Source of the DNA: an uncultured cyanobacterium
Lineage (GTDB): Bacteria > Cyanobacteriota > Cyanobacteriia > CAKZMO01
Reading direction: 5' to 3'
Length of the DNA: 64,000 nucleotides
Assembly (NCBI GenBank): GCA_963719515.1
Contig: CAVRCJ010000001.1
Coordinates: 223,153 to 287,152 of the forward strand
In this document: one piece after another, positions 4,162 through 27,053 of the stretch
Layout: every line of letters begins with the position of its first letter
Numbering within the stretch: position 1 is the first letter of the stretch
Made by a program: the position numbers and the translations under genes
Notes under the pieces: model-generated
What the model saw: only the letters and a program-made list of their open reading frames with translations
What the model was told of the DNA's origin: nothing
The model's database searches: none

Positions 4162-4914
4162 TCGATCTGCGGCAGCGTCACCTGGAAGGTGGTGCCCTGC
4201 CCCACGGCGCTGCGATACGTCAGCGTCCCGTGGTGGAGCCGCAGGCAGGCGTTGACCACCGACAGCCCCAACCCCGTTCCCCCAACCTCACCCACGTTTC
4301 TCCCTCGGTAAAAGGCCTGGTAAAGGCGATCGCGATCGCGCTTGGGGATGCCAATGCCCTGGTCCTGCACTTCAAAGATAATTTGGTGGGACTGACGGGT
4401 GAGGGTGAGGGTCACCTGGGGGACAGGGCCAGAATACTTCACGGCGTTGGAGAGCAGGTTGGTCAAAATCGCCCGCAGCAGCTAGGGGTCAAGGTAGGCT
4501 TTGGCGTCACCGCTCGGTGATTTGGGCGGTGGGGCTGGTTTGGGCGCGGAGGGCGGCTTCAAAGCTGGGGCGATCGCCGTTGGTGATGACGGGAGCCCAT
4601 TCGAGGGCCTGGATGCCGGGGTAGGTGGCCAAAGCGCGCTGCACAAAGGCGTTGAAGCGATCGCGGGGAATGGGCTCTGGCGAGACGCGGTAGAAGTCGC
4701 CGAGGGCCAGCAGTACGTCGGTGTAGCGGTTGAGGCTGCGCTGCAGGGCGGTGGTGAGGCTGTCGGTTTGGCGCTGGAACTGGAGGCGATCGTGGGCCTG
4801 CTCCCAGCGGGCGACGGCCAGGCTGGCGGCGATCGATAGGCTGGTGCCGAGGAGGAGGGAGAAGGCGATTGGGGGGGTGAGGCGATGGAGGTATCGCAAG
4901 GGCGATCGCGGCAT
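4158..4914 (-). pseudogene. sensor histidine kinase remnant (CHASE-like N-terminal fragment plus HATPase_c C-terminal fragment, joined over an internal stop)
   Basis: ORF 4507-4914 encodes a TM segment plus YPGIQALEWAPVI (CHASE-like). ORF 4158-4466 encodes only the ATP-binding N-box/G-boxes (LLSNAVKYSG...DQGIGIP...GGTGLGLSVV). HisKA/H-box and linker are missing, and a TAG lies between the fragments. It is convergent with, and overlaps by 4 bp, the response regulator gene. Confidence 0.55.
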
Positions 4915-5019
4915 GGCGAGTAGCGATGGAGATATCGCGGGGGCGTTGGGTGTTGGGCGATCGGGGCGGTTGGGGCGATCGAGGTGTTGGGGCGGGTTTG
5001 GCTGGGAGGTTTTGGGATG

Positions 5020-5080
5020 TTCAGATATGTTACTGCTAAACCCGCCTGTACGGTGGGGAGGGGCGGTTGGGGAATTGGGA
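5020..5080. repeat. REP-like sequence copy (gctaaacccgcc[t/c]gtacggtg...)
   Basis: Same ~35 bp motif as at 5862-5900 and 6130-6170. It lies immediately 3' of the RAYT gene. Confidence 0.5.
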
Positions 5081-5082
5081 AA

Positions 5083-5628
5083 TTAGGGGCGGCGGGATTT
5101 TTGTTGCCATGCGGTGGGGTTGGCCTGGATATAGCGTTGGATGTTTTGCATGGCGATCGTGTCGCGAATGATGCGTTCGTAGAAGTTGCGCTGCCAGACG
5201 GAGAGTCCTGGCGTTTGGCGGATTTGGTTGATGCGTCGGGTGGAGAATGTCTTGAAGCCGCGAATGATTTCGGAAATGCTGTGACGCTTTGGGCGATTCT
5301 CCTGCGGAGATGCTGCGCAAACGCCTTTTGAAGGGGGCAGATCCATGCTGGACGGGTCGTGGTCGAGAATCAAGATACCATGCATGTGGTCGGGCATGAT
5401 GATGAATTCGTCGAGGGTTAGATGCCGATGGTGTTTTGGTAGTTTCATCCAGTGGCCTCGGGCGGTTCGTCCGATCTGGTTGAGCTGCATTTCGCCGTTG
5501 ATGACTTTGCCAAAGAGGCGATCGCGCCGGTAGGCGCAGATGGTAATGAAGTAGGCTCCGGCGGAGGTGTAGTCGTAGCCTTTGAGGCGGATTGAGCGGC
5601 GGTGGTGTCTTTGGGGGTCGTATTTCAT
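5083..5628 (-). CDS. REP-associated tyrosine transposase (RAYT, IS200-like TnpA_REP)
   Basis: MKYDPQRHHRRSIRLKGYDYTSAGAYFITICAYRRDRLFG..., HUH motif PDHMHGILIL, and catalytic Y in QRNFYERIIRD. The ORF-track frame extends 107 codons further upstream into the repeat array, so it was trimmed to the ATG at 5628. Confidence 0.75.
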   Translation of the reverse strand: MKYDPQRHHRRSIRLKGYDYTSAGAYFITICAYRRDRLFGKVINGEMQLNQIGRTARGHWMKLPKHHRHLTLDEFIIMPDHMHGILILDHDPSSMDLPPSKGVCAASPQENRPKRHSISEIIRGFKTFSTRRINQIRQTPGLSVWQRNFYERIIRDTIAMQNIQRYIQANPTAWQQKSRRP

Positions 5629-5689
5629 GAGTTGGCGTTTGGATGCATCCGTTTGCAGGATGCCCAAATGGCGCGAATCGCGAGAGGGG

Positions 5690-6245
5690 AGGATGGGCGA
5701 TGAGAATTTCGGAGGGGCGAGATGGGCGATCGCGTGGTGCGTGGATGGGGGATGGGAATTTCGGAGGGGCGAAAGGGGCGATCGCGCGGTACGTGGATGG
5801 GCGATGAAAATTTCGGAGGGGCGGGTTTGGCAGTAACGTTTTGGGCTGTTCCGATAGTTGCGGCTAAACCCGCCCGTACGGTGTGTGGAGGGGCGTTTGG
5901 GGGGATGAATTCGTGGGGCGATCGCGCGCAGCGAATTTATCGTATTCATTGCAGAATGATGGAGGGGCGATAAAAGTTTCGTCGGGGTGGGATGGCGATC
6001 GCGTGGCGCATGGATGGGCGAGGGGAATTTTGGAAGGGCGAGAGGGGCGATCGCGCGGCGTATGGATGGGCGATGAGAATTTCGGAGGGGCGGGTTTTGC
6101 AGTAACGTTTTGGGCTGTTCCGATAGTTGCGGCTAAACCCGCCCGTACGGTGTGTGGAGGGGCGTTTGAGGGGATAAATTCATGGGGCGGTCGCGTCGAT
6201 GCATCATGGAATTTGGCGTTCGTGTAGCGAATGCGCAGCATTATC
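5690..6245. repeat. two tandem ~270-bp repeat units, each with ~60-bp sub-repeats (gggcgatcgcg..gtggatggg...tttcggaggggcg) and a terminal REP-like motif
   Basis: Direct comparison of 5693-5960 with 5985-6240 shows near-identical blocks, including ggtttggcagtaacgttttgggctgttccgatagttgcggctaaacccgcccgtacggtgtgtggaggggcgtttg. Confidence 0.7.
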
Positions 6246-6262
6246 GCGTAGCATTTATCGCA

Positions 6263-6631
6263 TCAGGGCATTTTTGATTTGGAAGATGGCATCGGATGAG
6301 GGGGCGAGGCTTCCGTTGATCCAGCGGTTGATGTTGTAGGCGGCGGCGCGAAGATGATGATGAAGGTGGCGTGGGGGATGAGGCGACGTAGGGTGCGGCA
6401 GTGGGCGTCGGCGTCGTTGCGTTTGCGGAAGCGGGCGACGGTGATGCGCTGGGCGTTTGGCAGCAGGCGGATGATGCACCAGGGGTGGAGCTGCTGGCGG
6501 TAGGATTCTGCGGCGAGGCGAGATGTTGGTACCATGGGGGAATATTCCCCGCTTTTGCGGGGTTTGAGAGATGGCAACTGCCCGAAACTTGCCGGTGGGA
6601 GACAGTTGCCTTTGTGTTGCATAAGTCTCAT
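6263..6631 (-). CDS. hypothetical protein (weak; frame ambiguity with overlapping 6255-6635 ORF)
   Basis: Two overlapping reverse ORFs with no recognisable motifs. It is divergent from the XRE gene. Confidence 0.2.
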   Translation of the reverse strand: MRLMQHKGNCLPPASFGQLPSLKPRKSGEYSPMVPTSRLAAESYRQQLHPWCIIRLLPNAQRITVARFRKRNDADAHCRTLRRLIPHATFIIIFAPPPTTSTAGSTEASPPHPMPSSKSKMP

Positions 6632-6633
6632 TC

Positions 6634-6653
6634 AAATACGAGTATTCGTATTT
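6634..6653. promoter_or_regulatory. 8-4-8 inverted repeat AAATACGAgtatTCGTATTT, candidate operator
   Basis: Perfect palindrome arms 12 bp upstream of the XRE-family gene start. This is a typical autoregulatory operator position. Confidence 0.35.
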
Positions 6654-6664
6654 GTCAAGGCGGT

Positions 6665-6877
6665 ATGGGTAAGATTCGCTTGCGGATTAAGGCGCTGGTT
6701 AAGGAGCGGGGATGGACGATGAAGGAGGTTGCGAGGCGGGCGGACATTCCTTACACGACGGTTGCGACCTACGCCAATTCTCCGGGTATGGCGACGGTGG
6801 ATTATACCGCGCTGCATAAGCTGGCTCGGGTGTTCGAGATTTCTGTTGAGGAGCTGGTGGAGATTGTGGAGGAGTAA
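6665..6877 (+). CDS. XRE-family helix-turn-helix transcriptional regulator (70 aa)
   Basis: MGKIRLRIKALVKERGWTMKEVARRADIPYTTVATYANSP...LHKLARVFEISVEELVEIV matches the HTH_XRE pattern. The internal ATG at 6665 is preferred over the 158-aa ORF-track frame. Confidence 0.7.
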   Translation: MGKIRLRIKALVKERGWTMKEVARRADIPYTTVATYANSPGMATVDYTALHKLARVFEISVEELVEIVEE

Positions 6878-6907
6878 GCGGCAGTTCTATCTGAGAATGG
6901 CTGTAAA

Positions 6908-8272
6908 TTGCTGATTTGCCGGATGAGTTGGGGCCTGTGGAGCCGTAGGGGTGAGGGAGGCGATTGCCTGAACGAACCTATCACGCGAGGTTGCCGAATA
7001 TCAGGAGATATAGTGAGTCGATCAATTCCTCAAATTGTGTCTGATTGGAAAAGAACTCTCCTCCTAGACATACAGCCCAGCTACAAGGTATGGCAGCAGC
7101 GCTTCATGCATCAACGTCTTGTCATAGCGATCACGTTAACGCTGGGAATTTATATCGTCCTCACTCTATTGCGCCTTATTACTGCTTCTACATCCCTTGC
7201 TCCTACTCCTGGTTGGCTTTCTATGGCACTTTTGGTGCAGCTCTCACTGTTGTTTTGCTTGTTATTACTACGCTTTCCTTTAGGCCGTCAACACCCCGAA
7301 CTAATATTTCTAGCCGCGTCTTTGACGGTCACGCTGTTGGAACAAATATGGGCTACACTTAACGGCTTTGCTTATGCTGGGCTACGCTCTTGGACGCTAG
7401 TTTTTCTTGTTCAGAGCACACTTATACCCATACGCTGGCCGCTTCATCTATTGTCTCAATCAATAGTGCTTATATACTTTTATGCCGTCAATATGGCACT
7501 CGATTTGCCCCTGGCCAACGACACTTTAGAGTGGAACTCTCGCCAAACTATTTATATATTCTGCTTTTGTGGAATATCTACTCTATCAGTATATTTTTAC
7601 GATCGTCTTCGGTGGAACGAGTTTAAGACCCAGCAAGTGCTAAAAGCGCAAAAAAATCGCTCTGAGCAGCTACTGTTCAATATCTTGCCTCAGGTGATAG
7701 CAGAAGAAAATATAAGCTCAGATAGCTTTGCGGAAGCTACAGTGCTATTTGCAGATATTGTGGGTTTTGCTCAGAAGGCACCGAGTATATTACCTCACAA
7801 AACTGTAGATCTACTCAATCAAATATTTTCTATCTTCGATCAGCTCGCAGTACAGTATAAGCTAGAGACAGTTAAGGCTATCGGTAATGCGTATATCGTC
7901 GTAGGAGGCATCACCGCCGACAATTCAAATCATGCCGAGATGATTGCAGATATGGCATTGGCCATGCGGAAGGCATTTGTAAAACTAAGTCGTGAGCAAG
8001 GATATACCTTGAAACTTCGTATTGGCATCAATACTGGCCCTGTCTTTGCCACTATTATAGGGCGTAGCCGTTTTGTCTATGACATTTCAGGAGACACTGT
8101 TGACATTGCTAACTACATGGAGTCTAAAGGAGAGCCAGGAGCTATTCAGGTAACTGAAGCGGTATTGCTCTGTCTAGGCAACAATCGCTACCGTGTAGAG
8201 GAACGTGGACTAGTATATGTTGAAGAAGTAAAAGAAAATGTGCTTACCTACTGGCTCACAGGTAAAGTTTAG
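6908..8272 (+). CDS. membrane-anchored class III adenylate/guanylate cyclase (N-terminal multi-TM domain plus CHD catalytic domain); start uncertain
   Basis: Catalytic domain motifs VLFADIVGFAQKAP, KAIGNAYIVVGGI and GINTGPVFATIIGRSRFVYDISGDTVDIANYMES. ~6 hydrophobic helices upstream. The region is visibly AT-richer than its flanks. Confidence 0.8.
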   Translation: MLICRMSWGLWSRRGEGGDCLNEPITRGCRISGDIVSRSIPQIVSDWKRTLLLDIQPSYKVWQQRFMHQRLVIAITLTLGIYIVLTLLRLITASTSLAPTPGWLSMALLVQLSLLFCLLLLRFPLGRQHPELIFLAASLTVTLLEQIWATLNGFAYAGLRSWTLVFLVQSTLIPIRWPLHLLSQSIVLIYFYAVNMALDLPLANDTLEWNSRQTIYIFCFCGISTLSVYFYDRLRWNEFKTQQVLKAQKNRSEQLLFNILPQVIAEENISSDSFAEATVLFADIVGFAQKAPSILPHKTVDLLNQIFSIFDQLAVQYKLETVKAIGNAYIVVGGITADNSNHAEMIADMALAMRKAFVKLSREQGYTLKLRIGINTGPVFATIIGRSRFVYDISGDTVDIANYMESKGEPGAIQVTEAVLLCLGNNRYRVEERGLVYVEEVKENVLTYWLTGKV

Positions 8273-8318
8273 AAATCAAAAACTTTTCTGAACACTATTA
8301 CCTTTCATCTCAGCAAGT

Positions 8319-9056
8319 CTAGCTTTTGTATCTGGCTTCCCAAAAAGCAGTGTATTCATACGCCCACCACCGTCTTGGTGGGGATACGTGAGAGTTGATT
8401 TCTTGATAAGCTTTACCATTGTTTCTAGCATAGGAGGCCATGTGCTGGGCATAATTCAGGAGTGCTGAATATTCCTTAAGTGGGCTAGCGAGGTTGAGAA
8501 TTAAAGTCGATATACGATTCAAGTCCGCCAAATCGTGCTTGTAGGTATAAGAAAGAGCTTGACCTAGTTCTTGAGCCGCTTGAGCCGGCTGACTGTACGC
8601 CAACGCTCCCCACCGCTGCACCTGAATATACTCTTGTGATGTCAGTTCACTGCTATGAAGCTGTTCCTCAACATAATCGAGAGTAAACTCTGCTAATTCT
8701 CGAATACGATCGCTACCAAATTGGGGATCGGCTTCTAAGATATGCAATAGTGCTTGTCGCAAGCGTGGCTTCATTTCATAGAGGTCGTATCCCACGGATT
8801 CACAAAGACCCGATGCCACCAACAGATCGGTTACCGACTCCCATGGAATTGGCTCTAGTTCTCCTTGAAACTCATCTCGGATATTACCCCAAATCCGATA
8901 GAGTAAGTCAGGCGTCAATGATATGGGAAATGCTGCATGGCAAGCCAGCCTTAAGCAAGCTTCACCGTAGCGTTCAGCAAAAGTCTGAATGTACGTCTGC
9001 GAATCTTCGGATGTTGAAATCTCATCATTTTTATACCGAACAGAGTTGCGTATCAC
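8319..9056 (-). CDS. hypothetical protein, third gene of the MoxR-vWA operon (4-bp ATGA overlap with vWA gene)
   Basis: No recognisable motif. It is translationally coupled to the vWA gene. It is AT-richer than the upstream operon genes. Confidence 0.45.
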   Translation of the reverse strand: MIRNSVRYKNDEISTSEDSQTYIQTFAERYGEACLRLACHAAFPISLTPDLLYRIWGNIRDEFQGELEPIPWESVTDLLVASGLCESVGYDLYEMKPRLRQALLHILEADPQFGSDRIRELAEFTLDYVEEQLHSSELTSQEYIQVQRWGALAYSQPAQAAQELGQALSYTYKHDLADLNRISTLILNLASPLKEYSALLNYAQHMASYARNNGKAYQEINSHVSPPRRWWAYEYTAFWEARYKS

Positions 9057-10486
9057 GGATCTAATTTTGTCTTGCTTTTGCGACCACGTAGAACATCAAT
9101 CGCTGAGCTTAACCCAGCACGATTGCATCCAAACATAGGAATCATCTGAGCAACTTCCGCTGCCGTTGTGCCGGTCCATCGCTGCTTTGGCATCGGGTTG
9201 AGCCAGGCAGCATAGCGCACTCGCTGAAACAAAATGTCAAGGAAGGTTTGGGTTTCTTCAATGCGATATGGGCTATAACCTCGGCGAGCTGCCCCTGCAT
9301 CGCTAATAATTAACGTACTCAACTGCCGCAAGGGTAGTTGGTCAAAGACATCATCTAAAGATTCCTCTTCTAAACAAATGGCGTCATGATAAAGGTATCC
9401 TACTGGACAATTGTGAAAGTAATAGACGTGAGTCATTCTAAAACGTCCACCGCGCTGAGCTGTAGTCACCAAGCGTTCTGTCAGTTTATGAGATGGTATC
9501 ATCGAGCCGCCCTGGTCTACCAACAACAGTAATGTGGCGCGATTAGTTCGGGGCGGCATCAACACCGGACTAAGAAAGATTCCCTGTTGGCCCACCTGCT
9601 GAATCGTTGCCGCCACATCAAGCTCAGTCGGTGTCCCCTCCCGCACAGGCCGGGAGAGATGGCGCCAAATCTGCTTCATTTGACGCTGAGTAATAGGAAA
9701 ATATTGCCTCATTGTCAGAAAGCGAGTTGGCCTATGCTGAATCAAGCGCTGGTTGATCTGAGCTGCTTCAATTTCATCATCAATCGCCTGTGTTCCTCGA
9801 GAGAACTTGCTTGGCCGGGGCCGATATGGCTTTGCAGACGGTCTCTTCAGTCGCTGCTTAATCAGCGATGCCGTTATAAGTGATCCTACTGAAACAGCAA
9901 TAAAGCTAATTAGGAGCGGCAATGCGGGAACATCGGAAACGGGCCGACCTACCGGTATACCTGGTGCAGGAGCCTCGACGGTCGTCGATTGCTCTCGGTT
10001 TGCCTGCCAAAGTATCATCCCGACTCCTGCCCCAACTGCGAGAGATGTTGCAAAAAAAATTGAAGTCGAGCGAATAGAAAAATCATTGGGTGGTAGAACC
10101 GGCATCTGCGAAACTGCAGCCTGCTCAACTTCAAGTGGCATTAGCTGCTCAATGTGATATATCAGCTGCCGCTTTTCCTCCTCTGTCTTCGCCCACAGCG
10201 TCTCACACAGCCGCAGCAAAGCATCGCGATCGCCCACCCCAAACCCCTTACTCATCGCCTTTAGCGCCAGCTGATACTCATCAATCCCCAGCGGCATCCC
10301 GCTATCCCGCAGTCGAGTAAATAGCTCCAGCAGTGGCAAAGCATCAACATTCTCTGACTCCCCTCTCCCAAGGTTGGGAGAGGGGCTGGGGGTGAGGGCC
10401 TCAAAAGGTTTTTGAATGCGGACCATTGCCAAGTCTCCAATTAGCGTCAGCGCGATCGCCTCAAATACTTCACATGCTGCTCCCAA
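9053..10486 (-). CDS. von Willebrand factor A (vWA) domain protein with N-terminal region and TM segment
   Basis: MIDAS-like LLLLVDQGGSM, then ...LIISDAGAARG, in the C-terminal half. A hydrophobic segment FFATSLAVGAGVGMIL is present. The start overlaps the MoxR gene by 40 bp. Confidence 0.75.
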   Translation of the reverse strand: MGAACEVFEAIALTLIGDLAMVRIQKPFEALTPSPSPNLGRGESENVDALPLLELFTRLRDSGMPLGIDEYQLALKAMSKGFGVGDRDALLRLCETLWAKTEEEKRQLIYHIEQLMPLEVEQAAVSQMPVLPPNDFSIRSTSIFFATSLAVGAGVGMILWQANREQSTTVEAPAPGIPVGRPVSDVPALPLLISFIAVSVGSLITASLIKQRLKRPSAKPYRPRPSKFSRGTQAIDDEIEAAQINQRLIQHRPTRFLTMRQYFPITQRQMKQIWRHLSRPVREGTPTELDVAATIQQVGQQGIFLSPVLMPPRTNRATLLLLVDQGGSMIPSHKLTERLVTTAQRGGRFRMTHVYYFHNCPVGYLYHDAICLEEESLDDVFDQLPLRQLSTLIISDAGAARRGYSPYRIEETQTFLDILFQRVRYAAWLNPMPKQRWTGTTAAEVAQMIPMFGCNRAGLSSAIDVLRGRKSKTKLDP

Positions 10487-11394
10487 TTCTTCAGCAGCAC
10501 CCCCGCAAACGGCACCTGCCCCTCCAGCTTCGCTAGCGCCTCATCCTGCGGATACCGCTCCAGCACCCGGAACCAATCCAGCAGCTCGCTCGTGCTCACC
10601 TTCTTCCCCGCCGTATTCCCCATCTCGCCCCGCAGCGCCTCAAACCGCTGCACCGCCTTGTCCGCCACCTCCGGCGCAGCATCAGGATATGTGGCCCGAA
10701 CAATCTGAGTCAGGCGATCGCTATTCGGAAATTCAATGTAGTGGAACAGACACCGCCGCAAAAACGCATCCGGCAAATCCTTCTCATCGTTGCTGGTGAT
10801 GAACACAATCGGGGCCTTATCCTCATCCGCCCTTATCTCCTCCCCCGTCTCATCAACCACAAACCGCCGCTCGTCCAGCTCCAGCAGCAGATCATTGGGG
10901 AAATCAATATCCGCCTTGTCAATCTCATCAATCAGCACAATCGTCCGCCGGTCATTCTGAAACGCCTTCCCCAGCGCCCCCATCCGCACATAGCGCGATG
11001 GATCCTTAGCCCGGTACACTGCCTCCGGGTCAATATTCTGATTCGCCAGTTGCGCATCCCGCAGCCGCCCCACCGCATCGTAGGTATACAGCCCGTCCCG
11101 CGCCCGACTAGTGGATTTGATGTACCACTCCTCCATTGGCAGCCCCAGCTCGTGCTTCACCGCCCAGGCCAGCTGGGTCTTGCCGCACCCCGGCTCCCCC
11201 TTCAGCAGCAGCGGACGCTCCAAGAAAATCGCCAGATTCACCGCCTCCACCAGCGCCTCATTCGCCAAATACGGCACCAGCCGCCGCCCCGTCTTAGGGT
11301 CGCGATCGCCTAGCTTCGGCTGCTTTTGCCCTGTAAACTGCAACTCTAAATCGAATACCAACTTGAAGACTCCATCCGCCAGTCGTAGCCGCAC
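10447..11394 (-). CDS. MoxR-like AAA+ ATPase
   Basis: Walker A LLLKGEPGCGKTQLA, Walker B IVLIDEIDKA, and sensor region ...FITSNDEKDLPDAFLRRC. The GTG start and ~315 aa length are typical of MoxR/CbbQ/NorQ-family ATPases that partner vWA proteins. Confidence 0.85.
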   Translation of the reverse strand: MRLRLADGVFKLVFDLELQFTGQKQPKLGDRDPKTGRRLVPYLANEALVEAVNLAIFLERPLLLKGEPGCGKTQLAWAVKHELGLPMEEWYIKSTSRARDGLYTYDAVGRLRDAQLANQNIDPEAVYRAKDPSRYVRMGALGKAFQNDRRTIVLIDEIDKADIDFPNDLLLELDERRFVVDETGEEIRADEDKAPIVFITSNDEKDLPDAFLRRCLFHYIEFPNSDRLTQIVRATYPDAAPEVADKAVQRFEALRGEMGNTAGKKVSTSELLDWFRVLERYPQDEALAKLEGQVPFAGVLLKNWEQHVKYLRRSR

Positions 11395-11650
11395 CGCTTA
11401 CAGATTTCAAAGAAGACCCACTCCGGAACCCCCTCGTCTGACAGCTCGTACATTTCCCCAATTGTCGCATCTGTGTCGCGGGTCATCTCCGCTGGCAGGT
11501 GGTGAAACTGGCCGCCTATCCATTGATCTAGCTCTTCTTCAGAGAATTCCTTATTTTGCGGAGATTTGTATGGGTAGTAATTCGTGGTATCGGCGTCGAG
11601 CTTCTCAGTAAAGGGAATATTGCGCTGAGCCGTGACGGCCTCGTTGTCGA

Positions 11651-12715
11651 TTAAGACATTAGCAGCTTGTGCTCGTTGCCCTGTTTGGTTCGCATCCCTT
11701 CTGCCTCATTGGCCAGCGGCAGCCAAAACTCCTGAATCAGCTTATTCAGCAGCTCCTCCGACAGGCAGTCTACGTCGTAGATTGCCAAAATCAAATCCTG
11801 CGTCTTCCACCACCGTAAGGCTCTCTTAGCGATCTCCTTCGGCTTCGTGTTGCGATCGCACTTCAGCTCCATCGCCAGCTCTGCCCACAGCCCCCTCACG
11901 TCACTGCGTCGCCCCACCCGGTCTAGGCTCACCCGCAGCTTCTTCCCAGACATACTAGTGGGCACATACTGCTGCAACAGCCGGTTCACCAGCCACTGCT
12001 GTCCGTACCGCTCCGTCGGCCCGTGAATTAGGTAGGCTCCAATGGGCTTTTTCTGCACCAGCTTGCGGAAGAGCTTCGCCTGGGGCCGATAGCCCAACTG
12101 CATTAGCGCCTCTTTGAGCTGGTTGCGGTCTACGGGTTGCCAAATGCGGTTTAGCTCTTCGATGGCGATCGCCGCCCCCACCCCGTCCCGCAGCGCGTGG
12201 CTCACCACCGCAAACACCTTGCCGGTTTGCGGGTTCACCACAGGAGCACCGCTAAACCCACCCCGAACGCTGTCATCCTCAAACTTCAGCTCCCATGCCT
12301 GGATGGGGTTATTGGGCGGATGCGCCGTGATTTGAAAGGGCTCCGCCAGCGTCCCGGGTAGCTTCTGCGTCCGGTGATTCTGCGCAGAGGAGACAAACGC
12401 CTGGTAGCCTTCTACAACAACCTTACTGCCTATAGGTCCCGGCTCGCCCATGGCAAACAGCGTCTCGTCATCCTCCACTAAACCCTCTACCTTGATCACC
12501 GCCAAGTCCAGACCCAAATCATCCCCCGTCACCACAACGGTACCCGGCAGTCCATTCACGCAAATCGTCTCCGCCCCCACGTCGCGAATCACATGGGCGC
12601 AGGTGACAATACAGGCAAACTCTCCAACTCGGCGCACAATAAAGCCACTGCCGTAGTCGCGGTTCCGGTCTGCACTACTAGCGATTAAAACAACGGGGTC
12701 AGCGATCGCCACCAT
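11651..12715 (-). CDS. trypsin-like serine peptidase fused to a C-terminal degenerate P-loop (inactive STAND-like) domain
   Basis: N-terminal catalytic triad context: TCAHV (His), DLAVIKV (Asp), GGFSGAPVV (Ser). The C-terminal half has IGAYLIHGPTERYGQQWLVNRL, which resembles a Walker A lacking the Lys. Confidence 0.7.
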   Translation of the reverse strand: MVAIADPVVLIASSADRNRDYGSGFIVRRVGEFACIVTCAHVIRDVGAETICVNGLPGTVVVTGDDLGLDLAVIKVEGLVEDDETLFAMGEPGPIGSKVVVEGYQAFVSSAQNHRTQKLPGTLAEPFQITAHPPNNPIQAWELKFEDDSVRGGFSGAPVVNPQTGKVFAVVSHALRDGVGAAIAIEELNRIWQPVDRNQLKEALMQLGYRPQAKLFRKLVQKKPIGAYLIHGPTERYGQQWLVNRLLQQYVPTSMSGKKLRVSLDRVGRRSDVRGLWAELAMELKCDRNTKPKEIAKRALRWWKTQDLILAIYDVDCLSEELLNKLIQEFWLPLANEAEGMRTKQGNEHKLLMS

Positions 12716-13049
12716 CGGCAGTATCTCTTGGCTTGGGCATCGGTTTAGGCTTCAGCACCAGTTTAACGGTCAAATTCGCTGTGGATTTGGCTTTTGTAAT
12801 GTAGATGTTACCTTCTCCCTCAAAGCTCAGCCCCAGCTCCACCTCCGCTTGGTCAATCTCCACGTCCCGGTTTAACTCTTGGCAGGCCGACACAATAGGC
12901 CGACAGGCTTTCACAATCAGGGGCCGCACTTCCTCAAACGTCGCCCCCACTTTCTGAGCAAACCGCCCAGACACCTCGCGCACCTGATCACCCTGCACAT
13001 CAACCTCAACTAAAAGGCCGTCCTGAAACTCAACCAGCTGCGTTGCCAT
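12699..13049 (-). CDS. small protein co-transcribed with the trypsin-like peptidase (trypsin-co-occurring-domain-like, family uncertain)
   Basis: MATQLVEFQDGLLVEVDV...EVELGLSFEGEGNIYITKAKSTANLTVKL. Overlaps the peptidase gene start by 17 bp. An AT-rich promoter-like stretch lies upstream (13050-13100). The ATG at 13049 was chosen over the ORF-track extension. Confidence 0.4.
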   Translation of the reverse strand: MATQLVEFQDGLLVEVDVQGDQVREVSGRFAQKVGATFEEVRPLIVKACRPIVSACQELNRDVEIDQAEVELGLSFEGEGNIYITKAKSTANLTVKLVLKPKPMPKPRDTADGGDR

Positions 13050-13159
13050 GCAATTAGTTCCTAGCAAAGTAATTAGTATACTTCTCTCAAAGAGAGTTTT
13101 TCGATGATAGCGCCGTCCTAAAATGAGCCGTCGATAAGGAAAATGAGGATGCCGTCGCT

Positions 13160-13410
13160 CTGAGGCGGCGGCCCGCGCCAACTATCACGACGGTGCGCTG
13201 CGATCGCATGCATGTGGGCGATCGCACGCTGCTCATCGGCAACGCGATCCATGCGGCTTCCCCCGCCATCGGCCAAGGCTGCAATGCCTCGCTGCAGGAC
13301 GTGATGGTCTTCGCCCAATGTTTAGGCGCTATGACAACGAATTGGAGCCAGCGATCACCCTTACTCTGAAGTTCTCAGGCAAACTCAGGACTGGATTGAG
13401 CGGGTTTAGG
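13160..13410 (+). pseudogene. C-terminal fragment of a paralogous FAD-dependent monooxygenase (copy of 46860-47316 region)
   Basis: The nucleotide stretch ...accatcacgacggtgcgctgcgatcgcatgcatgtgggcgatcgc...ggctgcaa.gcctcgct.caggacg..atggt.ttcgc... aligns with 46870-47040. It translates to TITTVRCDRMHVGDRTLLIGNAIHAASPAIGQGCNASLQDVMVFAQ. No 5' part is present. Confidence 0.6.
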
Positions 13411-13683: not shown

Positions 13684-14475
13684 TTGGCGGTACAACTGGC
13701 TTGGTTTTCCGTCAAGCAGGCCCGCGTCGTCCGCAAGGCGTCGGGCTACTTTGTCATGCTGTCGCTAGAGGCTGATGTAGACATCCCTGATGTTCCCTTT
13801 CACGGCCACCCGGTGGGAATCGATGTAGGTCTCGAATACTTCCTCTCGACTTCTGACGGCGAGCAGGTCAAGCGACCCCGCTTTTTCGACGAGCTGCACC
13901 GCAAGCTGAAATCGCTGCAGCGTAGACTCAAGACTAAGCGCAAGGGGAGCAACAACTGGCTGAAGCTGCAAAAGAAGATATCGAGAGTGCATCAGCGCAT
14001 CGCCGACACCCGCAAGGACTGGCACTACAAGCTAGCGCATCATCTGTGTGATGGCGCAGGTGCTGTTTTTGTCGAAGACCTCGACTTCCGCATCATGGCG
14101 AAAGGGATGCTGGGCAAACACATCCTTGACGCTGGCCTAGGGCAGTTCACCAATCAGGTGCTTCCTTGGGTGTGCTGGAAGCGTGATGTCTACTACGGCA
14201 AGGTGGACCCGAGGGGCACTTCTCAGGAGTGCCCAGACTGCGGCGCTGAGGTGCGCAAAGGTCTGAGCACTCGAATATCGCACTGCCGCTCTTGCGGTTC
14301 AGTCAAGCCGCGAGATGTGGCGGCAGCGCAAGTGATTAGTACCCGTGGGCAACGGGGAATAGAAACTGCCTGTGGAGTCGAGGCGGCGGGGGCTGGGGTA
14401 ACTCAGTCTAGCTGGCTGGCAGCGAAGCAGGAACTCTTTGGGGTAACCCAGGGAATCTCCCTGCATACCCGATAG
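13684..14475 (+). mobile_element. TnpB (IS200/IS605-family OrfB) C-terminal fragment, 5'-truncated
   Basis: RuvC-like segments GIDVGLEYFLSTSDGEQV and AVFVEDLDF, and zinc finger CPDCG...CRSCG. It lacks the ~130 aa N-terminal part expected for full TnpB, and no tnpA is adjacent. Confidence 0.65.
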
Positions 14476-14622: not shown

Positions 14623-17195
14623 TTGAACAACCCCAGACCCACTACTTCAGAACTCCCTCTTCTAGAGACCAAGCTTTACCTCCCGCAATGGTCTGCTGAC
14701 TTAGTATCGCGCCCAAGACTCATTGATCGCATTCACCCGCAGCGCAAATTAACCCTGGTCTGCGCCCCAGCAGGTTTTGGCAAAACGACACTGCTAGCAG
14801 AATGGGCAGCAGCCGTACCAACAGGGCCCGTTGCCTGGGTTTCCTTAGACCAGAGTGACAACGATCCGGCTGTTTGCTGGACCTATCTGATCACTGCTCT
14901 GCATAAAATTCGGCCCAGCCTAGGTGAGCGATCGCTCGCGTTACTGCAATCACCACAGTCCCCTCCAATTGAGCCGGTCTTGATGACGCTGCTCAATGAA
15001 CTTACTGCAGTTGAAGAGTCTGTTGTCTTGATCCTTGATGATTACCATGTGATCTCAACCCAGGCCATTCATGACGGGGTCGGTTTTTTTCTCAGTCATT
15101 TGCCGCCCCAAGTGCATCTAATTATTGCCAGCCGCGCTGACCCGCCTCTGTCTCTGGCGCGTTTAAGATCCCACAAAGAATTGACCGAGCTTAGGGTAAG
15201 CGATTCGCGGTTCACCCCGGCGAAGCTGCCGCTTTTTTGAACCAGGTGATGGGATTGGAGATTTCGGCAGCAGAAGTTTCCGCCTTGGAGCAGCGGACCG
15301 AAGGCTGGATTGTAGGACTACAGCTCGCGGCGCTGTCCCTACAAGGGCATGAGGACGCTGCTGGTTTTGTGGCGGCTTTTTCGGGAGACGATCGCTACAT
15401 TGTGGACTATCTGCTGGAAGAAGTTTTGCAGCGGCAGCCCGATCGCGTTCGTCACTTTTTGCTGCAAACAGCCATTTTGGAACGTTTGAGCGGTTCTCTA
15501 TGTGATGCCGTTACCGGCCAAGCCGGTGGACAGGAAATGCTGGAAGCGCTAGAGCGTGGCAACCTGTTTATCATTCCGCTGGATAACAAGCGCCAGTGGT
15601 ACCGATACCATCACTTGTTTGCCGATGTTCTTCAGGCCCATGCCCTGATGGAGTGGCCAGAACAGATACCCAGCCTGCACGGACGAGCAAGTGACTGGTG
15701 TGAGCAGAACGGCTTGTTCTTTGATGCAATTCGTCATGTCTTGGCCGCCCAGGACTTTGAGCGAGCAGCAGGTCTAATAGAGCAGGTGTGGCCTACCATG
15801 CGTCGGCGTCAGCGAGAAGCCACTGTACTGAGCTGGATCAGGTCACTCCCTGACTCCCTGATTCGCAACCGGCCCGTCCTCAGCGTTGCCTACGCCCTAG
15901 TGCTGCTGAACGATGGCCAGCTAGACGCGGTTGAATCCCATCTGCAGGACGCAGAACGATGCCTGGGAGCGGACACAGCCGTAGATTCACAGGAGCCGCT
16001 AGCGGTTGGGAGCGCTGTAATGGACGACGCACAGTTGCGGTCTTTACCCGCCTCCATTGCCAATGCCCGCGCCTATCGGGCTCAAGCGCTGAAGGATGTG
16101 CCCAGCACTGTGGCTTACGCTCAGCAGGCCCTCGAACTGTTGCCAGAAAATGAGGAATACGAGCGCGGCACAACCGCAGCCCTGCTTGGGCTCGCCTACT
16201 GGACCAGCGGCAGGCCAGAAGCCGGCTACCGTTCCTTTGCTAAGGGTCTGGCAATTTTCAAGCAGATGGGCCTCCCCCAGATGGCCATTGGCGGCACCTT
16301 GATCTTGGCACAGATGAGTATGGCCCAGGGGCGTCTCCACCGGGCAGCTAATATTAGTGAGCAGTCCTTACAGCTGGCGATAGAGCAGGGCGGCCCGGTG
16401 CTGCCGGGCACGCCAGAACTGTATTTGGCCTTGAGTGAAGTGCGCTACGAACAAGGCGATCTGGCGGCTGTCAGTCAGCTACTGCTGAGCGGTGAAACGC
16501 TACGTCAGCAGGCTTCGCTATCGGGGGCTGCCTATCTTTGGTGGGCGGTACAGGCACGATTAAAAGCCGCCGAGGGCGATCTGGAGACTGCCCTCGACCA
16601 GCTTCATGAGGCCGAGCGGCTCTACGCCCGAACGCCTATTCCAATCCCAGATGTGCGCCCGATTGAGGCTTTAAGGGTACGGTGGTGGCTGCGGCAGGGA
16701 AGATTGGCCGAAGCGCTGGGCTGGGTGCGGGAGTGCGGTTTGTTGGCGTCCGACCCGCCGAGCTATCTACACGAATATGAACACCTGACTCTGGCCAGCG
16801 TTGAGATCGCTCAGTACAGGCGTAATGGCACACAGGATGGACAGACGGCGAGGGAATGCATCAGGACTACGATGATTGATTGCTGTCCGCCGCTGAAGCC
16901 CAAGAGCGCACTGCCAGCATGATCGAAATTCTGGTGGTTCTGGCTCTCGGCGAGTAGCGGCTCAGGGTGATCTCCCGGCGGCATGGCCAAAGACCGGCCT
17001 TCGGCCATCGCATCGCTAGAACGGGCCTTGCTCCTGGCTGAACCGGAGGGACATGTTCGCATCTTTGTAGAACATGGAGCACTGATGGTGCTACTGCTGC
17101 GGGAGGGGAGTCGCACCACTCACGCATCGCTCCATGGATGTTTCAGCAGCTATTCGACGCCCTTAAACCGGGGCCGCTCCAAGAAGAGGTACTGA
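14623..17195 (+). pseudogene. MalT-like (LuxR-family, STAND ATPase) transcriptional regulator with multiple frameshifts and C-terminal decay
   Basis: Walker A VCAPAGFGKTTLLAEWAA, and Walker B VLILDDYHV. A single-base deletion near 15220 (expected ...TPAEAAAFLNQVMG reads TPAKLPLF*). A second cluster of frameshifts lies at 16930-16990 (LAEPEGHVRIFVEHG is in another frame). No LuxR HTH is found at the C-terminus. Confidence 0.65.
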
Positions 17196-19889
17196 TGGCT
17201 GCTGGAGACCTGCTTCGAGCAACCCTGAATCGTTCTCCCTCTCAGTCAAATGAGAAACTGTCTCTTCCTCCGACGTCACCAAACACTGAGAAGTTCCTGG
17301 CTCGAAAATAGCTGTGAGCTGGTCTGTGGGCTTTGAGCAACAGTGGTATGGACACCAAGTGGATTGCAGCAAACTTAATGTCACGAATCGTTGTTGAGCT
17401 GCTTGGCGAATCGAGTGAGCTAGATTTGATTCAGCGAGTACTCTCTCGGATCATTTTGACAAGACTTGCTCAAATTCTCACGTCTAATCCCACCATGGGG
17501 GTACAATGGTTTCCTGAGTACCGTTTGTATCTTTGAGCTGTTAATGCGAACCGCGGTCGAGAGCAGGTGAGAGCACTTTGATGAATCAACTATGCAATCA
17601 GCTCATAAATCTGTCACCCACTTGAACAGTACTAGATTTGTATCAAGGGACATTTTGATTGTCGTTGGAGCGTGGCTTGGGGACTTGTGGATCGCGCCAA
17701 GGAGTACGGTGAACGCTGTTGATCTGTCCAGTGGTTGATCAGGTAGTGCTTGATGGAATTGTCGATTAAGGTACGTAATTTGGGACTGCCGCTGGTCTCG
17801 AAAGTCACGCTGACCAAATCCTATGAACAGTAATATTTCCAGAACATCCAAAATGAAGAATGACGATGAATTCTACAGAAACAGATGCTCATAATGAAAA
17901 TGAAAAGCGAAGCTCTCGGCGCTGTGGATGTTTTATCTTCAATACGATATTTTTGCAGATCCATGAATTGATCCAGTGGATTTATGGAACAAATGATGAT
18001 GGGACACTTCAATGGAATTCAAATCACAGAACAACTGTCGCTGTTTGGTGGTCTGGTGGCAGAAGGTGCCATTGCTATGGGTGCTTCTCCTCCACTGTTC
18101 GCTGGATGGTGGTAAATCGTTGGGCTAACATCATCGACCGCTGTGATGACCCTTGTGTTTGAAATCAATAATGGTACTACTGATTTAGACGATACCTTTT
18201 GACTACTCCAGAGAAATCTGCTGCTTCGTCCTTCATTGTCTTGGTCGGCATGGTGGTGGCGAAGTCTGATACGAAGTGTGATGAATGAGTCAGGAAGCAT
18301 TAGCTTTCAAAATAAAATGCCGATATTTAGACACAATAGGAGAAATTAAATGTGATTAAAGGAAGAACTTGTTGTTGTGGGTAAAAGTTCAATTTGAGTT
18401 AATTAAGTGCCCACAATGATGGGTATGTGCCATTGCAGCCTATGTTGAAAAAGTTGGCGTGAGCACTCTCGTATTTGTCAAGGTCGTAAGATTTCAGATT
18501 TAATAAGGTAGGTGTGATCAAATATCTATCTATAAAGCTGAATCTCAGCATAAGATCGATTGCTGTTTTTGCTTGGCTGCGGTTCTGCATGGAGAGGTGT
18601 TGTCAGAAAATGATTCATTTCCTTTGGCGGTCAACTGCATAGACGGGGATATTGGACTTGAAAAGATAGTTTTCATGAAATTGTTTGGGAAATGCTGCCA
18701 AACTTGCACACTGTACAGCAATTCTGATTCAGCATCGATTCAAATCATAAGTGCAATGATCGACCGCCTCAATCTTCCCGTTCGCAATGTTCTGGCACAA
18801 GGTGACAACCAACGTCACGTCAACCCAGGAGTTGAACCATGACTCAAGCGGCCCAATTTTGGGACAAGGTTGCAAAAAGTATTCCAAACAGCTGATTGCT
18901 GATGAGCTGGAATTTATCAGAAAAGCTAGTGGTTACTGTGACTACTCTTCGGCCCCATATGGAAGTGTTGGAATCGGCTGCGGTACGGGTCAATGGCGAT
19001 CCTCCACGCCCCCTATTTGAAGTATATCGGCGCCGTTGATTTCTTCTGCCAATATGATTGTGATTGCCCAGGGCAAGGCCAAGCACATCGATAATGTGAC
19101 CTTTCTGAACAAGCCACCATTGAAAGATCTCGAATAGTCCTGGTTGGAGTCTAGATGCGGCGTCAGGTTTCAGCATTTTGCATCTTCTAAAAAACAAAAA
19201 GAAAGAACGTATCGCTCAGGTGATCAAGTTACTCAGGTGGTCTCTTCGTCACGAGTACTGTCCGCAATGGGGGACACCATGGAGCTGGCTCAAGCTCATC
19301 GTGCTAATTGGCTCAATTCCTCGGAATCTTCCGTTCGCTTCAGGTTATTACTGTGCAAGCACTGGCTGACAACTCTTATCAGGCTGCATTCTAAATGGGA
19401 TGACCAATGGAACCGAACAAGGGCAAGGGAGTGTTCATTGTGGCCAGAAACCTGAACAAACTATGAACGAAACTGAATCAACAAAGCGTCTAGTCTCTAC
19501 ACCAAGAGGGTTCAATTTAGCCATGCTGTTAAAGACAGCAATCTCAACATTAGAACGCTGGAAGCCGCTCCTGAGTGTCGACATGCTTCTACGCACTGAC
19601 GATGTATCTGCCCCTCAATGGAAGAACAAATTTAGCCGCTCTTGGTCAGCTCTGCAATGATCATCTGCTGTTGAGTCAGGCCGCGCGCCTCTCTTACTCT
19701 ATTCATCTTAGCTACTTGTTAAAATTCTCACCGGCCGGGGTAGGAATAGGAGCCTTCAGTCTTGCAACTTCTCAGAAAAGACTGCCTCAGTCAGCCCATG
19801 CTCCGGTGTCGATATTTCTGACGGCATGATCCAGCCTACTTAGGTTAAAATAATTCCTGAAAAATCGCTGACGATACTTTCTACTCTGA

Positions 19890-20030
19890 CAGATGCGGGG
19901 CAGATTAGGCGCTGACCCTTTGCCGATGAGTCCTTCGACGCGGTCATTTTTCCGCCCATGTTTTGGAGCAGATATGGCCGAACCCGTAGAAACGCTGCGT
20001 GAGATGATTGAATTCTGAAACCAGGGGCTC
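19890..20030 (+). pseudogene. class I SAM-dependent methyltransferase fragment (frameshifted)
   Basis: PFADESFDAVIFPP (Methyltransf_11-type motif) then a frameshift; AEPVETLREMIEF continues in another frame. No full-length gene is present. Confidence 0.35.
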
Positions 20031-21566
20031 TCAGCTGATTGGCTCTAGTAACCGAAAAGGCCTAGGTCAAGTTCTTACGTCCGCACTGGCACAATCGAGG
20101 CTACAACCTCAACGAGCTAGCCTCTCTTCGACAAGCGACAGGGCTCGAGCTGTCAACGCCTTCGACTATGGCACTGGCTGGTCGAGATGTATGCGCCTGC
20201 TGCGGTTGGGTCAAAAGAAAGAAATCGAGAGAGACCTTGGAGGTGAACTGCAGTATGTGGGCTAGATCATCAGTGACCGCATCTCCAATGTTTTGAAGGC
20301 AAGCCCTTGGAGGCCTGAGGGTCGACCTGCAGGTGGCGCTGTCCTTTTGCCGCAGCATGAAGCAGTGGCGCTCGATGCGCTGCTGGGCTATCAGTTGCGA
20401 TTGAGGCACTACGGGATCGTCGCGAGGTCTTCACTCAGGGAGGCTTACGTCGATGCCCACGTGCTGAAGTCGGCCCTCATGCCGCTGATCTACGAGGGGC
20501 GGCTGACCGGCATCTGTATCTGGAGAAAGATCTGGTGGAGGGGGCTTTACGGCGATGGCTCCATGGTAGAGCGTAATTCATTGAGCTTAGGGACGATGTC
20601 GTGTGGTATTGGGAACATCGCGACTTTCCCAGCCGAACGACGCCCTGTTCGGGTTGAGCTAGAGCAGCCGGCGTATAGCGCAACGCTGTATCGCTCTGCC
20701 AGCTGCGCTGACGGCGTTTCTCGGCTCAGGCAATTATTGTTCGCAATGAGGAGCGGCAGGTGATTGAGTGCATCAACTATGGCGATACTGGTCAGTTAGC
20801 GCAACCTCAGCCGGGCAGCAGCGCAGCAGCCGTCTTGGGCTTTGCCTGTGAGCAAGCTCAGTCAAGCTCTGATGCGTCCCAGTGATAGCTTTACAGCGCG
20901 GATAGAAAGTTTGGGTTTAGCCTCGAAAAAGACCTTTAAGTCCCTCTCTTACCATAATTTCAAGCTGCCCAACGCTATCCATTGCCTACCATAGATAGTT
21001 TTTCGCATCATATCAGCGCGAAAAATTCTGAAGCGATTATAGACCACGACCATCGCAGCCGCCACCATCAAAGCCACGGCCATCGTAGCCGCTACTCCCG
21101 TCGCAGCTACTTCCACCATCGATGCTACCTCCACCGTCAATGCTGCTTCCAGAATCAGAGCCGCCGTCCAAAAAGCCACCAACATACAGAGAAGGCGAGT
21201 ATCCCTCGTTCTAGCTGTTCGGCGCGTTGATAGATTACGGCTGGAAAGAACTTTGCGAGAAAGACAAAAAGTATTAAGACAGCGATGAGCAAAATAATCG
21301 GATGAGTTCCTCTTTTTAAGAAGAAGGTTTACTAAAATGCGAATAAGGCTTGAGATCTGAGTGACTGACAAAAGATGATGCGGCAGAGGCTGAAACGATG
21401 AGCCGGTGGGGATTGAGGGATAGCTAAGTGGAGTCGAGCGTTCGAAGATTTAGATTCCACTGAAAACCGTTAGAACCTGTGAAAAAACTCCGCCTCTACA
21501 ATGCCTTGAGCCAGTGGCTACGTCAAGCCTGCCCGTGGAGCACAAAACACATCTGGTAGGCTGCCT

Positions 21567-22670: not shown

Positions 22671-22734
22671 GATATAGCATAACGGCTCAAATCAGCGGCG
22701 GCGATCTAACTTAAACCTAACACCAGAAGTGGTG

Positions 22735-22800
22735 AGCCACAAATAAACGGTGTGGAGGTTCGCCCCGCCGGGGGGCGAACCTCCTGTTAGCGTCGTTCAG
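22735..22800. repeat. small palindromic element (taaacggtgt.g.ggttcgcccc ... cgtcgtt.a.ttatgg) with a perfect 12-bp-stem hairpin gaggttcgccccGCCGGggggcgaacctc
   Basis: A second copy with the same ends lies at 61640-61700. Confidence 0.45.
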
Positions 22801-25800: not shown

Positions 25801-26099
25801 TTGCCCCCTACAAGGTGCGGGTCACTCCACTGTCTATCCTTCTCCTTCAGCTGGACGCCGCCGCTGGACAGTCCTCGCGTTTGGGCAGACTTGCTAAATC
25901 CGACGTCACGCGGCCCCGGGGGCGCTGACGACGCACCCACTGGATTATGGCTGCTATGGTTCGAGCGGGTCGAGTGCAATCAGAATGAGGTGTTTCTAGA
26001 TAAATTTGCCTTAGTCGGCCATTGGGTGAAGTCGTCATTCTCCTGTTGTCTCTAGGCTTATCAGGGCGGGTCGTTCCTTTGAGCCAAGCCTGATCATGG

Positions 26100-26900: not shown

Positions 26901-27053
26901 TCATCCACAGCAGCGCTGGAGCGGCGATCGCGTTAATCACCCATCGCTTTCTGGGCCTGACGGGTTGCCGCTGCTTAGATTGCTCCTGCATTTTGAGCCT
27001 CCCTCGATGCTGAGCCCATTGTTACGCGCCTAGATCTGGGAAGGCTCCAATCT

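Follow-up and report, generated by a model that had tools for sequence, protein, structure and literature searches.

The closest described relatives of the locus discussed here are the MoxR-vWA "ternary" conflict systems, and within them the iSTAND class (subsystem 2 of Kaur, Burroughs, Iyer & Aravind, eLife 2020, PMC7159879). This class is defined by a third component, iSTAND, that bears N-terminal peptidase, TIR or EAD domains; its vWA protein has a 4-helical N-domain and often transmembrane (TM) segments, and its effectors are variable (PMC7159879). A later study (Kaur et al., eLife 2021, PMC8195603) described vWA-L, an alpha-helical module between vWA and the variable effectors that follows the pattern "vWA-L+TM+effector", and that in some iSTAND, iSTAND2 and TERNS3 systems has its own gene beside vWA. 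Here we examine 64,000 nucleotides (nt) of DNA from an uncultured cyanobacterium (assembly GCA_963719515.1, contig CAVRCJ010000001.1, positions 223,153 to 287,152; hereafter the window, with position 1 as its first letter). Five minus-strand genes within positions 8319-13181 of the window likely constitute a member of the iSTAND class, for which an anti-invader or programmed-cell-death role is only predicted. The locus agrees with that class in its defining features, of which the 4-helical fold of the vWA N-domain is a presumed one, except for the variable effector module, and is thus a truncated member.

Neither the iSTAND class nor its gene order is new to the literature, and the same goes for the separate vWA-L gene; the window locus is a further example. 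Transcriptional order runs from Trypco1 through a Trypsin_2-iSTAND fusion, a MoxR ATPase and a membrane vWA protein to vWA-L. The initial annotation, made from the letters and their open reading frames (ORFs), had placed five reverse-strand genes here; all five ORFs are present at the same coordinates, and its domain calls (MoxR ATPase, vWA protein, trypsin-like peptidase and small partner) are borne out by profile matches to AAA_5, VWA_CoxE, Trypsin_2 and Trypco1. It had also recognized the published ternary architecture with a peptidase effector, and the source data of Kaur et al. (2021; PMC8195603) indeed contain the identical five-gene order, including the separate vWA-L gene after vWA. 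What it missed is that the third gene is short and has no variable domain, and that the peptidase ORF is split by a probable assembly indel. A scan of GTDB species-representative genomes recovered 272 matching loci, all in Cyanobacteriota and mostly in filamentous lineages (Nostocales, Oscillatoriales), and synteny was judged on the best 80 of these. The order iSTAND, MoxR, vWA, vWA-L is found on one strand in all 67 of those 80 loci that have enough upstream DNA, and 4-nt gene overlaps are common among them.

Closer comparisons draw on two related contigs, L001 and L003, from European Nucleotide Archive (ENA) sample ERZ25039505, and on L091, a 2858-nt short-read Logan assembly from run ERR12040027. 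The features are as follows, with lengths in amino acids (aa).

12699..13049, minus strand: Trypco1 (trypsin-co-occurring domain 1), 116 aa; likely start ATG 13049 (mechanical ORF reaches 13181)
11346..12715, minus strand: trypsin-like peptidase fused to iSTAND (PF13365 + PF19995), intact product 456 aa
11657..11658, minus strand: one T absent (GTC in place of GTTC), breaking the peptidase-iSTAND frame; T present in L001, L003 and L091
10447..11361, minus strand: MoxR-clade AAA+ ATPase, ~304 aa; start TTG 11361 (mechanical ORF from GTG 11394, 315 aa)
9053..10426, minus strand: vWA protein, 457 aa, with two hydrophobic segments and a CoxE-type vWA domain; likely start ATG 10426
8319..9056, minus strand: putative stand-alone vWA-L (vWA-linker) module, 245 aa; GTG start overlaps the vWA stop
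6900..10138, no strand: compositionally foreign block, spanning the 3'-most 80% of vWA together with vWA-L and a convergent cyclase gene

The small partner protein matches both Trypco1 models above their curated cut-offs (PF19493, E 8e-13; NF041216, E 2e-15), and a homologue lies directly upstream in five of five related loci with a trypsin-bearing iSTAND and in none of the others. The peptidase half of the following gene is a Trypsin_2 domain (PF13365, E 7e-11) whose catalytic H, D and S (TCAHV, GLDLAV, GFSGAPV) are kept in six of six trypsin-type sequences, and its C-terminal half matches iSTAND (PF19995, E 7e-30 in the window and 1.6e-31 in the full-length L001 version). The lysine-less Walker-A-like motif that had drawn attention in this half, IHGPTERYGQ, proves to be a family hallmark: the pattern G-x5-GQ, with no lysine, is found in 65 of 66 homologues. 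With the C-terminal half of the peptidase assigned to iSTAND and the third protein to a conserved post-vWA module (below), both have homology to components of the known systems. A single-sequence AlphaFold2 prediction of the iSTAND module gave an unusable model, with a predicted local distance difference test score (pLDDT) of 44.

The ATPase matches AAA_5 (E 5e-12), AAA (E 1.4e-8) and, weakly, bpMoxR, and its Walker A (GEPGCGKT) and Walker B (VLIDEIDKA) motifs are intact. With the peptidase-iSTAND frame restored, the genes are tightly packed: a 17-nt overlap joins Trypco1 to the peptidase, a 16-nt overlap joins iSTAND to MoxR if the latter begins at TTG 11361, as in relatives, and a 4-nt overlap (GTGA) joins vWA to the third gene. 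The overlapping starts and stops attributed to the whole operon hold for these three junctions and fail at the fourth, where MoxR and vWA are separated by a gap of ~20 nt and the vWA start, ATG 10426, is preceded by GGAGA. Scans of the operon for promoters, terminators and repeats returned nothing above shuffled expectation.

The vWA protein (VWA_CoxE, PF05762, E 1.2e-8; SAV_2336_NTERM, E 6e-14, under that model's cut-off) has 756 homologues, mostly 440-490 aa long and cyanobacterial. A conserved region of ~75 aa (LPLLELFTRLR...LCETLW) forms its N-terminus, Kyte-Doolittle peaks at residues 121-140 and 166-190 mark predicted TM segments, and the window protein ends after the vWA domain. The metal-ion-dependent adhesion site (MIDAS) had been described as intact, which is true of its aspartates and not of the loop as a whole. 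D324 and D396 (477-aa numbering), which together constitute the criterion of Kaur et al., are invariant in 121 homologues, the latter within an SDAGAA motif. The loop, however, reads DQGGSM in the window against DQDGSM in the family; the middle residue is D in 107 of the 121 homologues and G solely in the window. Canonical DxSxS is not the pattern of this vWA family.

The third protein matches no Pfam or NCBIfam model. A word-index search gave two relatives and suggested an orphan, a verdict overturned by an exhaustive profile search that recovered 1691 clusters at E <= 1e-3 and 1198 at E <= 1e-10, some of them 64% identical. The domain is almost always N-terminal (residues ~6-190) in proteins of 182-1623 aa (median 577 aa among the best 150), and 78 of the best 150 representatives have, past the ~220-aa module, a hydrophobic segment that is probably transmembrane; no fused vWA+vWA-L protein occurs among the matches listed. 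In three related loci, the products of the post-vWA genes have N-termini with 44-64% identity to the window protein; these products are 636 aa long in L004 and 639 aa in L005, both with a C-terminal GUN4 domain, and 688 aa in L006 (CHASE2). The position of its gene, right behind the vWA gene, recurs in the 67 related loci. By position and architecture, the third protein fits the vWA-L of Kaur et al. (2021), and we use that name for it here.

What stands behind the module varies widely. Among 77 complete vWA-L genes in genome loci (245-1022 aa, median 551 aa; three of 77 shorter than 320 aa), the variable domains include FGE-sulfatase/C-lectin in 15, CHAT in eight, and AAA_35, GH25 lysozyme and receiver domains in four each; CHASE2, periplasmic binding protein, GUN4 and VanY domains occur in three each, and WD40 in two. 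No Pfam model covers the N-terminal vWA-L module in any of the 77.

The window copy departs from this pattern. Homology of its vWA-L to relatives stops near residues 213-222, no family member matches the final ~25 residues, and the protein has neither a hydrophobic segment nor a variable C-terminal domain. A tblastn search of the whole window with full-length relatives found no effector-domain relic and nothing beyond the vWA-L module; a weak 23-aa match at 47540-47608 falls in no matching ORF and was dismissed. No flanking repeats were found at the truncation point, and the vWA-L stop lies 47 nt from the end of the convergent adenylate cyclase gene. The second, noisier assembly of the window haplotype, L003, has the same short vWA-L gene followed by the cyclase gene. 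The window copy thus retains the whole constant machinery, with the peptidase-iSTAND gene probably intact, and its variable input or output domain is absent. Because the vWA-L gene ends right after the linker module, we lean towards the view that this copy is inert or reliant on a partner in trans.

Comparable losses are seen elsewhere. Two Nostoc loci, L087 and L088, encode vWA-L proteins of 234 and 243 aa at a locus syntenic with L006, where the protein is 688 aa long and ends in CHASE2; in L087 a UPF0175/DUF3368 pair occupies the place of the lost CHASE2 region. In the sister haplotype L001, the vWA-L gene is interrupted by an insertion sequence (IS), and what remains of it encodes a hydrophobic stretch, another trypsin-like domain and, at the C-terminus, a region that, judged from its sequence, appears FHA-like. 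As a separate observation on the three Nostoc loci (L006, L087 and L088, all with non-trypsin iSTAND operons), iSTAND has in front of it a conserved ~225-aa protein that no Pfam model matches, and a gene for a caspase-like peptidase (Peptidase_C14) is found immediately downstream.

Comparison of the window with L001 places the boundary between constant and variable parts of the operon inside the vWA gene. The two are 98.9% identical in nucleotide sequence from 13715 to 10138; past 10138 there is no nucleotide match, and the encoded proteins are ~55% identical. The junction (~10138) lies just behind the conserved N-terminal domain of the vWA protein. Composition changes across it: GC content at third codon positions (GC3) is 0.43-0.45 downstream against 0.72-0.74 upstream, and the HIP1 octamer GCGATCGC, found 77 times in the window and seven times in 10226-12702, is absent from 6048-10225. 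The alternative cassette of L001 is also GC-poor and nearly free of HIP1. Sample ERZ25039505 yielded contigs with either cassette, and within run ERR12040027, L002 has the L001-type cassette and L091 has window-type alleles of the constant backbone. To judge from these sequences, the segment spanning the vWA C-terminal part and vWA-L behaves as an exchangeable cassette, for which the sister haplotype has a different version joined at the same point in vWA. The swap unit is the TM linker, vWA domain, vWA-L and variable end, and not the third gene alone. An AT-rich swapped module had been suspected initially; its AT-richness and the swap are real, as GC3 and the break in identity with L001 indicate, and only its starting point must be moved, from the third gene to ~10138 in the vWA gene.

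The convergent neighbor of vWA-L (6908-8272, plus strand) encodes a membrane-anchored class III adenylate/guanylate cyclase (PF00211, E 2e-49). Its gene lies in a GC-poor, HIP1-free block (GC 0.445) and may have come in with the cassette. Cyclic nucleotide monophosphate cyclases often occur as modules in ternary systems.

On the observed side stand genes that are tightly coupled, a vWA protein with predicted membrane anchoring and, in relatives, a variable module following vWA-L; the steps of a possible mechanism we infer from the family literature and from known MoxR-vWA pairs. A cytoplasmic trypsin-iSTAND protein, with Trypco1 as its obligate partner, would be kept inactive. The membrane-anchored vWA protein would bind a peptide or a partner via its metal-site loop, and once a trigger is perceived, the MoxR hexamer would spend ATP on remodelling the vWA/vWA-L complex. 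Proteolysis by the trypsin domain may then release or activate the variable module on vWA-L, or may itself be the output. Published models disagree on the direction of signalling: in that of Kaur et al., iSTAND detects the trigger and what is set free as effector is the variable module, whereas Dore et al. (2024; PMC10907252), for VMAP systems, assign sensing to the variable module and the effector role to the N-terminal peptidase. The census of variable domains holds both ligand-binding and lytic domains and is compatible with either wiring, and under either the window copy is without its variable module.

Opposite wiring, in which the variable domain would sense an invader or envelope damage, MoxR would relay the signal and the trypsin domain on iSTAND would act as effector, is a real if tentative possibility, and it would mean that the window copy has lost its sensor and not its effector. 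Besides the published VMAP model (PMC10907252), the domain census speaks for it in part: many of the variable domains are ligand-binding and not toxic (FGE-sulfatase/C-lectin in 15 of 77, periplasmic binding protein, CHASE2, GUN4, WD40). The N-terminal domain is the effector in STAND proteins, and trypsin sits N-terminally on iSTAND. Other variable domains, however, are plainly enzymatic or lytic and suit an effector role (caspase-like CHAT in eight of 77, GH25 lysozyme, VanY). Structural comparison does not help this wiring either, as a Foldseek search with the predicted vWA-L structure gave nothing significant (best E 0.08) and hhalign against the neighboring MalT-like protein stayed at a probability of 0.2%.

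Several points weigh against reading the locus as a truncated iSTAND conflict system. The conflict or defense function and each mechanistic step are predictions, and our literature search found no experimental study of any iSTAND or VMAP system. No system is called at the window locus by PADLOC-DB 2.0, which returns domain-level matches only: the trypsin domain matches LmuA (E 1e-11) and RT-protease (E 9e-10), the P-loop matches IetA (E 4e-6), Trypco1 and vWA match nothing, and vWA-L reaches AbiK only at noise level (E 0.024). The vWA-L identification is one of position and architecture, with no public vWA-L model for comparison. The glycine in the MIDAS loop might weaken metal or peptide binding. 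Finally, short stand-alone vWA-L genes exist in other genomes, and the effector-less form might be a functional state rather than a product of decay.

This last point has an explicit form: the 245-aa protein would be a functional minimal vWA-L that either brings in an effector from another locus, in the manner of an adaptor or regulator, or caps the vWA protein. The ORF is intact, it begins with the family-typical 4-nt overlap, and its predicted fold is confident through residue 220. Short complete forms recur (245 aa in L041, 302 aa in L036, 317 aa in L084, 234 and 243 aa in L087 and L088), and L003 repeats the window arrangement with the cyclase downstream. Such forms are rare, however, at three of 77 complete genes below 320 aa against a median of 551 aa, and the Nostoc examples sit at a locus whose orthologue has the 688-aa CHASE2 version, which points to deletion. 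Further, the last 25 residues of the window protein are without a family match and of low confidence in the model, and the vWA-L gene of the sister haplotype is also broken, by an IS. We consider a functional minimal form unlikely.

The predicted structure of vWA-L suggests a more speculative reading of the whole class. An AlphaFold2 model of the window protein, built on an 85-sequence alignment, has a pLDDT of 86 and a predicted template modelling score (pTM) of 0.80; it consists of helices at residues 16-81, a beta-hairpin at 85-95 and a six-helix bundle at 97-220, with a low-confidence tail at 221-245. We read residues 16-95 of this model as a winged-helix-like unit, and the model as a whole may resemble the winged-helix/arm portion of STAND/NLR proteins, a resemblance that is a lead and not a result. 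Foldseek against the PDB gave no significant match (best E 0.08), with only small winged-helix domains at reasonable probabilities; a PDB profile search was empty, and hhalign against the neighboring MalT-like protein family remained at noise level (probability 0.2%). The ternary system could then be a split NLR. In such an arrangement, vWA-L would be the winged-helix domain (WHD)/arm half, with a variable and often extracytoplasmic ligand-binding domain; iSTAND would be a dead NTPase with an N-terminal executioner such as trypsin; MoxR-vWA would supply the lost nucleotide switch in trans; and the cassette of vWA domain, vWA-L and variable domain would be swapped at a fixed junction behind the vWA N-domain. 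We regard this as rather improbable. If it were true, cassette swapping would give population-level polymorphism of recognition modules, of which two cassettes on a 98.9% identical backbone within one sample would be an example here.

A different objection starts from the missing T at 11657. In the window, the peptidase-iSTAND gene appears as a 354-aa ORF (11651-12715) and an open, frame-shifted tail (11349-11657). Past the stop at 11651, the other frame is open for 103 codons down to 11346, with GC3 of 0.63, and the tail that it encodes is strongly conserved among iSTAND proteins; the apparent 257-nt gap between the peptidase and MoxR genes is an artefact of the frame break and not intergenic. 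L091 and the window agree in 2857 of 2858 nt, the T being the sole difference, and at each of the six sites by which the window can be told from L001, L091 has the window allele. Because this short-read assembly of the same haplotype has the T, the frameshift is probably an assembly error. Most likely, to judge from these alignments, it is an error in the window consensus, and the gene encodes a 456-aa protein. Programmed frameshifting was considered and rejected: inspection found no slippery heptamer and no RF2-like context at 11657, and three other assemblies carry the extra T.

If the frameshift were instead real, the locus could be a dead relic in which the peptidase-iSTAND and vWA-L genes are both pseudogenes. 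The deletion is, after all, present in the window sequence, and a second window-only single-T deletion, at 15218, splits the neighboring MalT-like gene; mobile elements lie to either side, with an IS605/TnpB remnant adjoining the operon and an ORF for an IS200-like Y1 transposase (5083-5949) ~2.4 kb past its other end. Against this stand the short-read assembly, identical save the one T, and the shifted tail, wholly open over 103 codons at a GC3 of 0.63. The deletion at 15218 is consistent with consensus error, and two single-T deletions peculiar to the window are more suggestive of an artefact of consensus calling than of independent mutations. A dead relic is, in our view, quite improbable.

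That the locus is instead a housekeeping MoxR-vWA chaperone pair (CoxD/CoxE-like or RavA/ViaA-like) with an HtrA-like quality-control protease, unrelated to conflict, is highly implausible: the vWA domain does belong to a CoxE-type Pfam family, the ATPase is MoxR-like and the peptidase has weak NCBIfam matches to HtrA/DegP models, but the HtrA/DegP matches reach 12-30 bits against cut-offs of 416-800 bits and come without a PDZ domain, the neighborhood holds no genes for CO dehydrogenase or another client, iSTAND and Trypco1 are domains specific to conflict-type systems, the last gene is hypervariable among relatives, the cassette differs between haplotypes in one sample, and mobile elements touch the operon both here (the adjoining IS605/TnpB remnant) and in the vWA-L gene of the sister haplotype L001. 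Nor is the operon embedded in a universally conserved housekeeping neighborhood: its distribution is patchy, it adjoins that remnant, and it is polymorphic within a single sample.

The surroundings of the operon contain further genes of possible relevance. Between the operon and the MalT-like gene lies a truncated IS605-family TnpB (OrfB_IS605 with a Cas12f1-like TNB domain, 263 aa; 13684-14475, plus strand), a remnant also present, in fragments, in L001 and L003. The MalT-like gene itself (14623-17195, plus strand) encodes a STAND regulator with an AAA_16/NACHT-like P-loop and TPR_MalT, to which GerE is added in relatives; it stands beside the operon in L001 and L003 too, and the window version, split by the deletion at 15218 (CCCC[T]GG), diverges from theirs from ~16840. 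On the other side, region 4500-6700 has strong GC skew (0.32-0.44) and 52-nt tandem repeats containing HIP1 at 5691-5823 and 5994-6092; together with the 288-aa ORF for the IS200-like Y1 transposase domain (5083-5949, minus strand), it may represent a REP/RAYT-like element. Stretch 17000-27000 holds nothing but short ORFs (<=181 aa), many of them in successive plus-strand frames, and the ten that were tested had no Pfam match; they could be unknown small genes, decayed genes or genes fragmented by indels. Farther away, a 1236-aa nSTAND1 NTPase (PF20703, E 3e-113) fused to ~14 WD40 repeats (41081-44791, plus strand) is a predicted conflict-system protein, and nSTAND1-type NTPases have been linked to EAD/trypsin partners in the comparative literature on ternary systems. 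A dynamin-family GTPase (629 aa) and a DUF3800 protein (377 aa) are encoded at 50791-54256 (minus strand), upstream of the gene for the Mg-chelatase H subunit (55819-59799).

Taken alone, the window locus adds little, given what is already published on the class and that two of its components have Pfam models. The class is abundant in filamentous cyanobacteria (272 loci; 1691 vWA-L clusters), yet vWA-L is without a public profile model, and the confident predicted structure of this module may offer a testable lead towards a STAND/NLR-like architecture. The natural pair of haplotypes marks the swap point of the variable cassette, inside the vWA gene. The variable end has been lost or broken repeatedly, by truncation here and in Nostoc and by an IS in the sister haplotype, which suggests a cost of carrying it.

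Among known systems, housekeeping pairs (CoxD-CoxE, RavA-ViaA and the Mg-chelatase subunits ChlI/ChlD) share with the window a MoxR-clade AAA+ ATPase beside a vWA protein with a metal-site loop, and the presumed ATP-driven remodelling of a vWA-bound peptide is borrowed from them. Unlike these pairs, the window locus has no client enzyme genes and adds iSTAND, trypsin, Trypco1 and vWA-L, with a hypervariable last module and a patchy distribution. STAND/NLR NTPases (MalT, Apaf-1, plant NLRs and bacterial Avs/NACHT) resemble it insofar as iSTAND is itself a STAND module, though a degenerate one, and bears an effector-type domain at its N-terminus; they differ in that the NTPase here is dead, with no Walker A lysine, and the two halves are on separate proteins with MoxR-vWA between them, and Foldseek and profile comparison give the similarity no support. 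VMAP ternary systems (subsystem 1) are likewise built around MoxR and vWA, place a peptidase or other signalling domain on their third component, are partnered by Trypco1/2 and have, as a class, hypervariable C-terminal modules, but the third component in the window is iSTAND and not VMAP-C. The N-terminal MoxR motifs described for VMAP systems (WxhapG/PsWRxa) were not noted in the window MoxR, for which no systematic search was made.

The iSTAND2 systems (PMC8195603) come closer, with an identical five-gene order and a separate vWA-L; the window module, however, matches Pfam iSTAND (PF19995, E 7e-30) and not the separately defined iSTAND2, and no FtsK or other domains stand behind its vWA-L. 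The iSTAND ternary systems (PMC7159879) differ from the window in that the window-type variable module is on a separate vWA-L gene and not fused to vWA, and in that this module is absent altogether in the window copy. The authors of that description regard the separate gene as a minority arrangement (PMC7159879); it is the sole arrangement seen among the best 80 of the 272 cyanobacterial loci. In its MoxR ATPase, for which no VMAP-type extensions were noted, its CoxE-like vWA protein with TM segments, its Trypco1 neighbor and its filamentous cyanobacterial host range, the window locus is otherwise like these systems.

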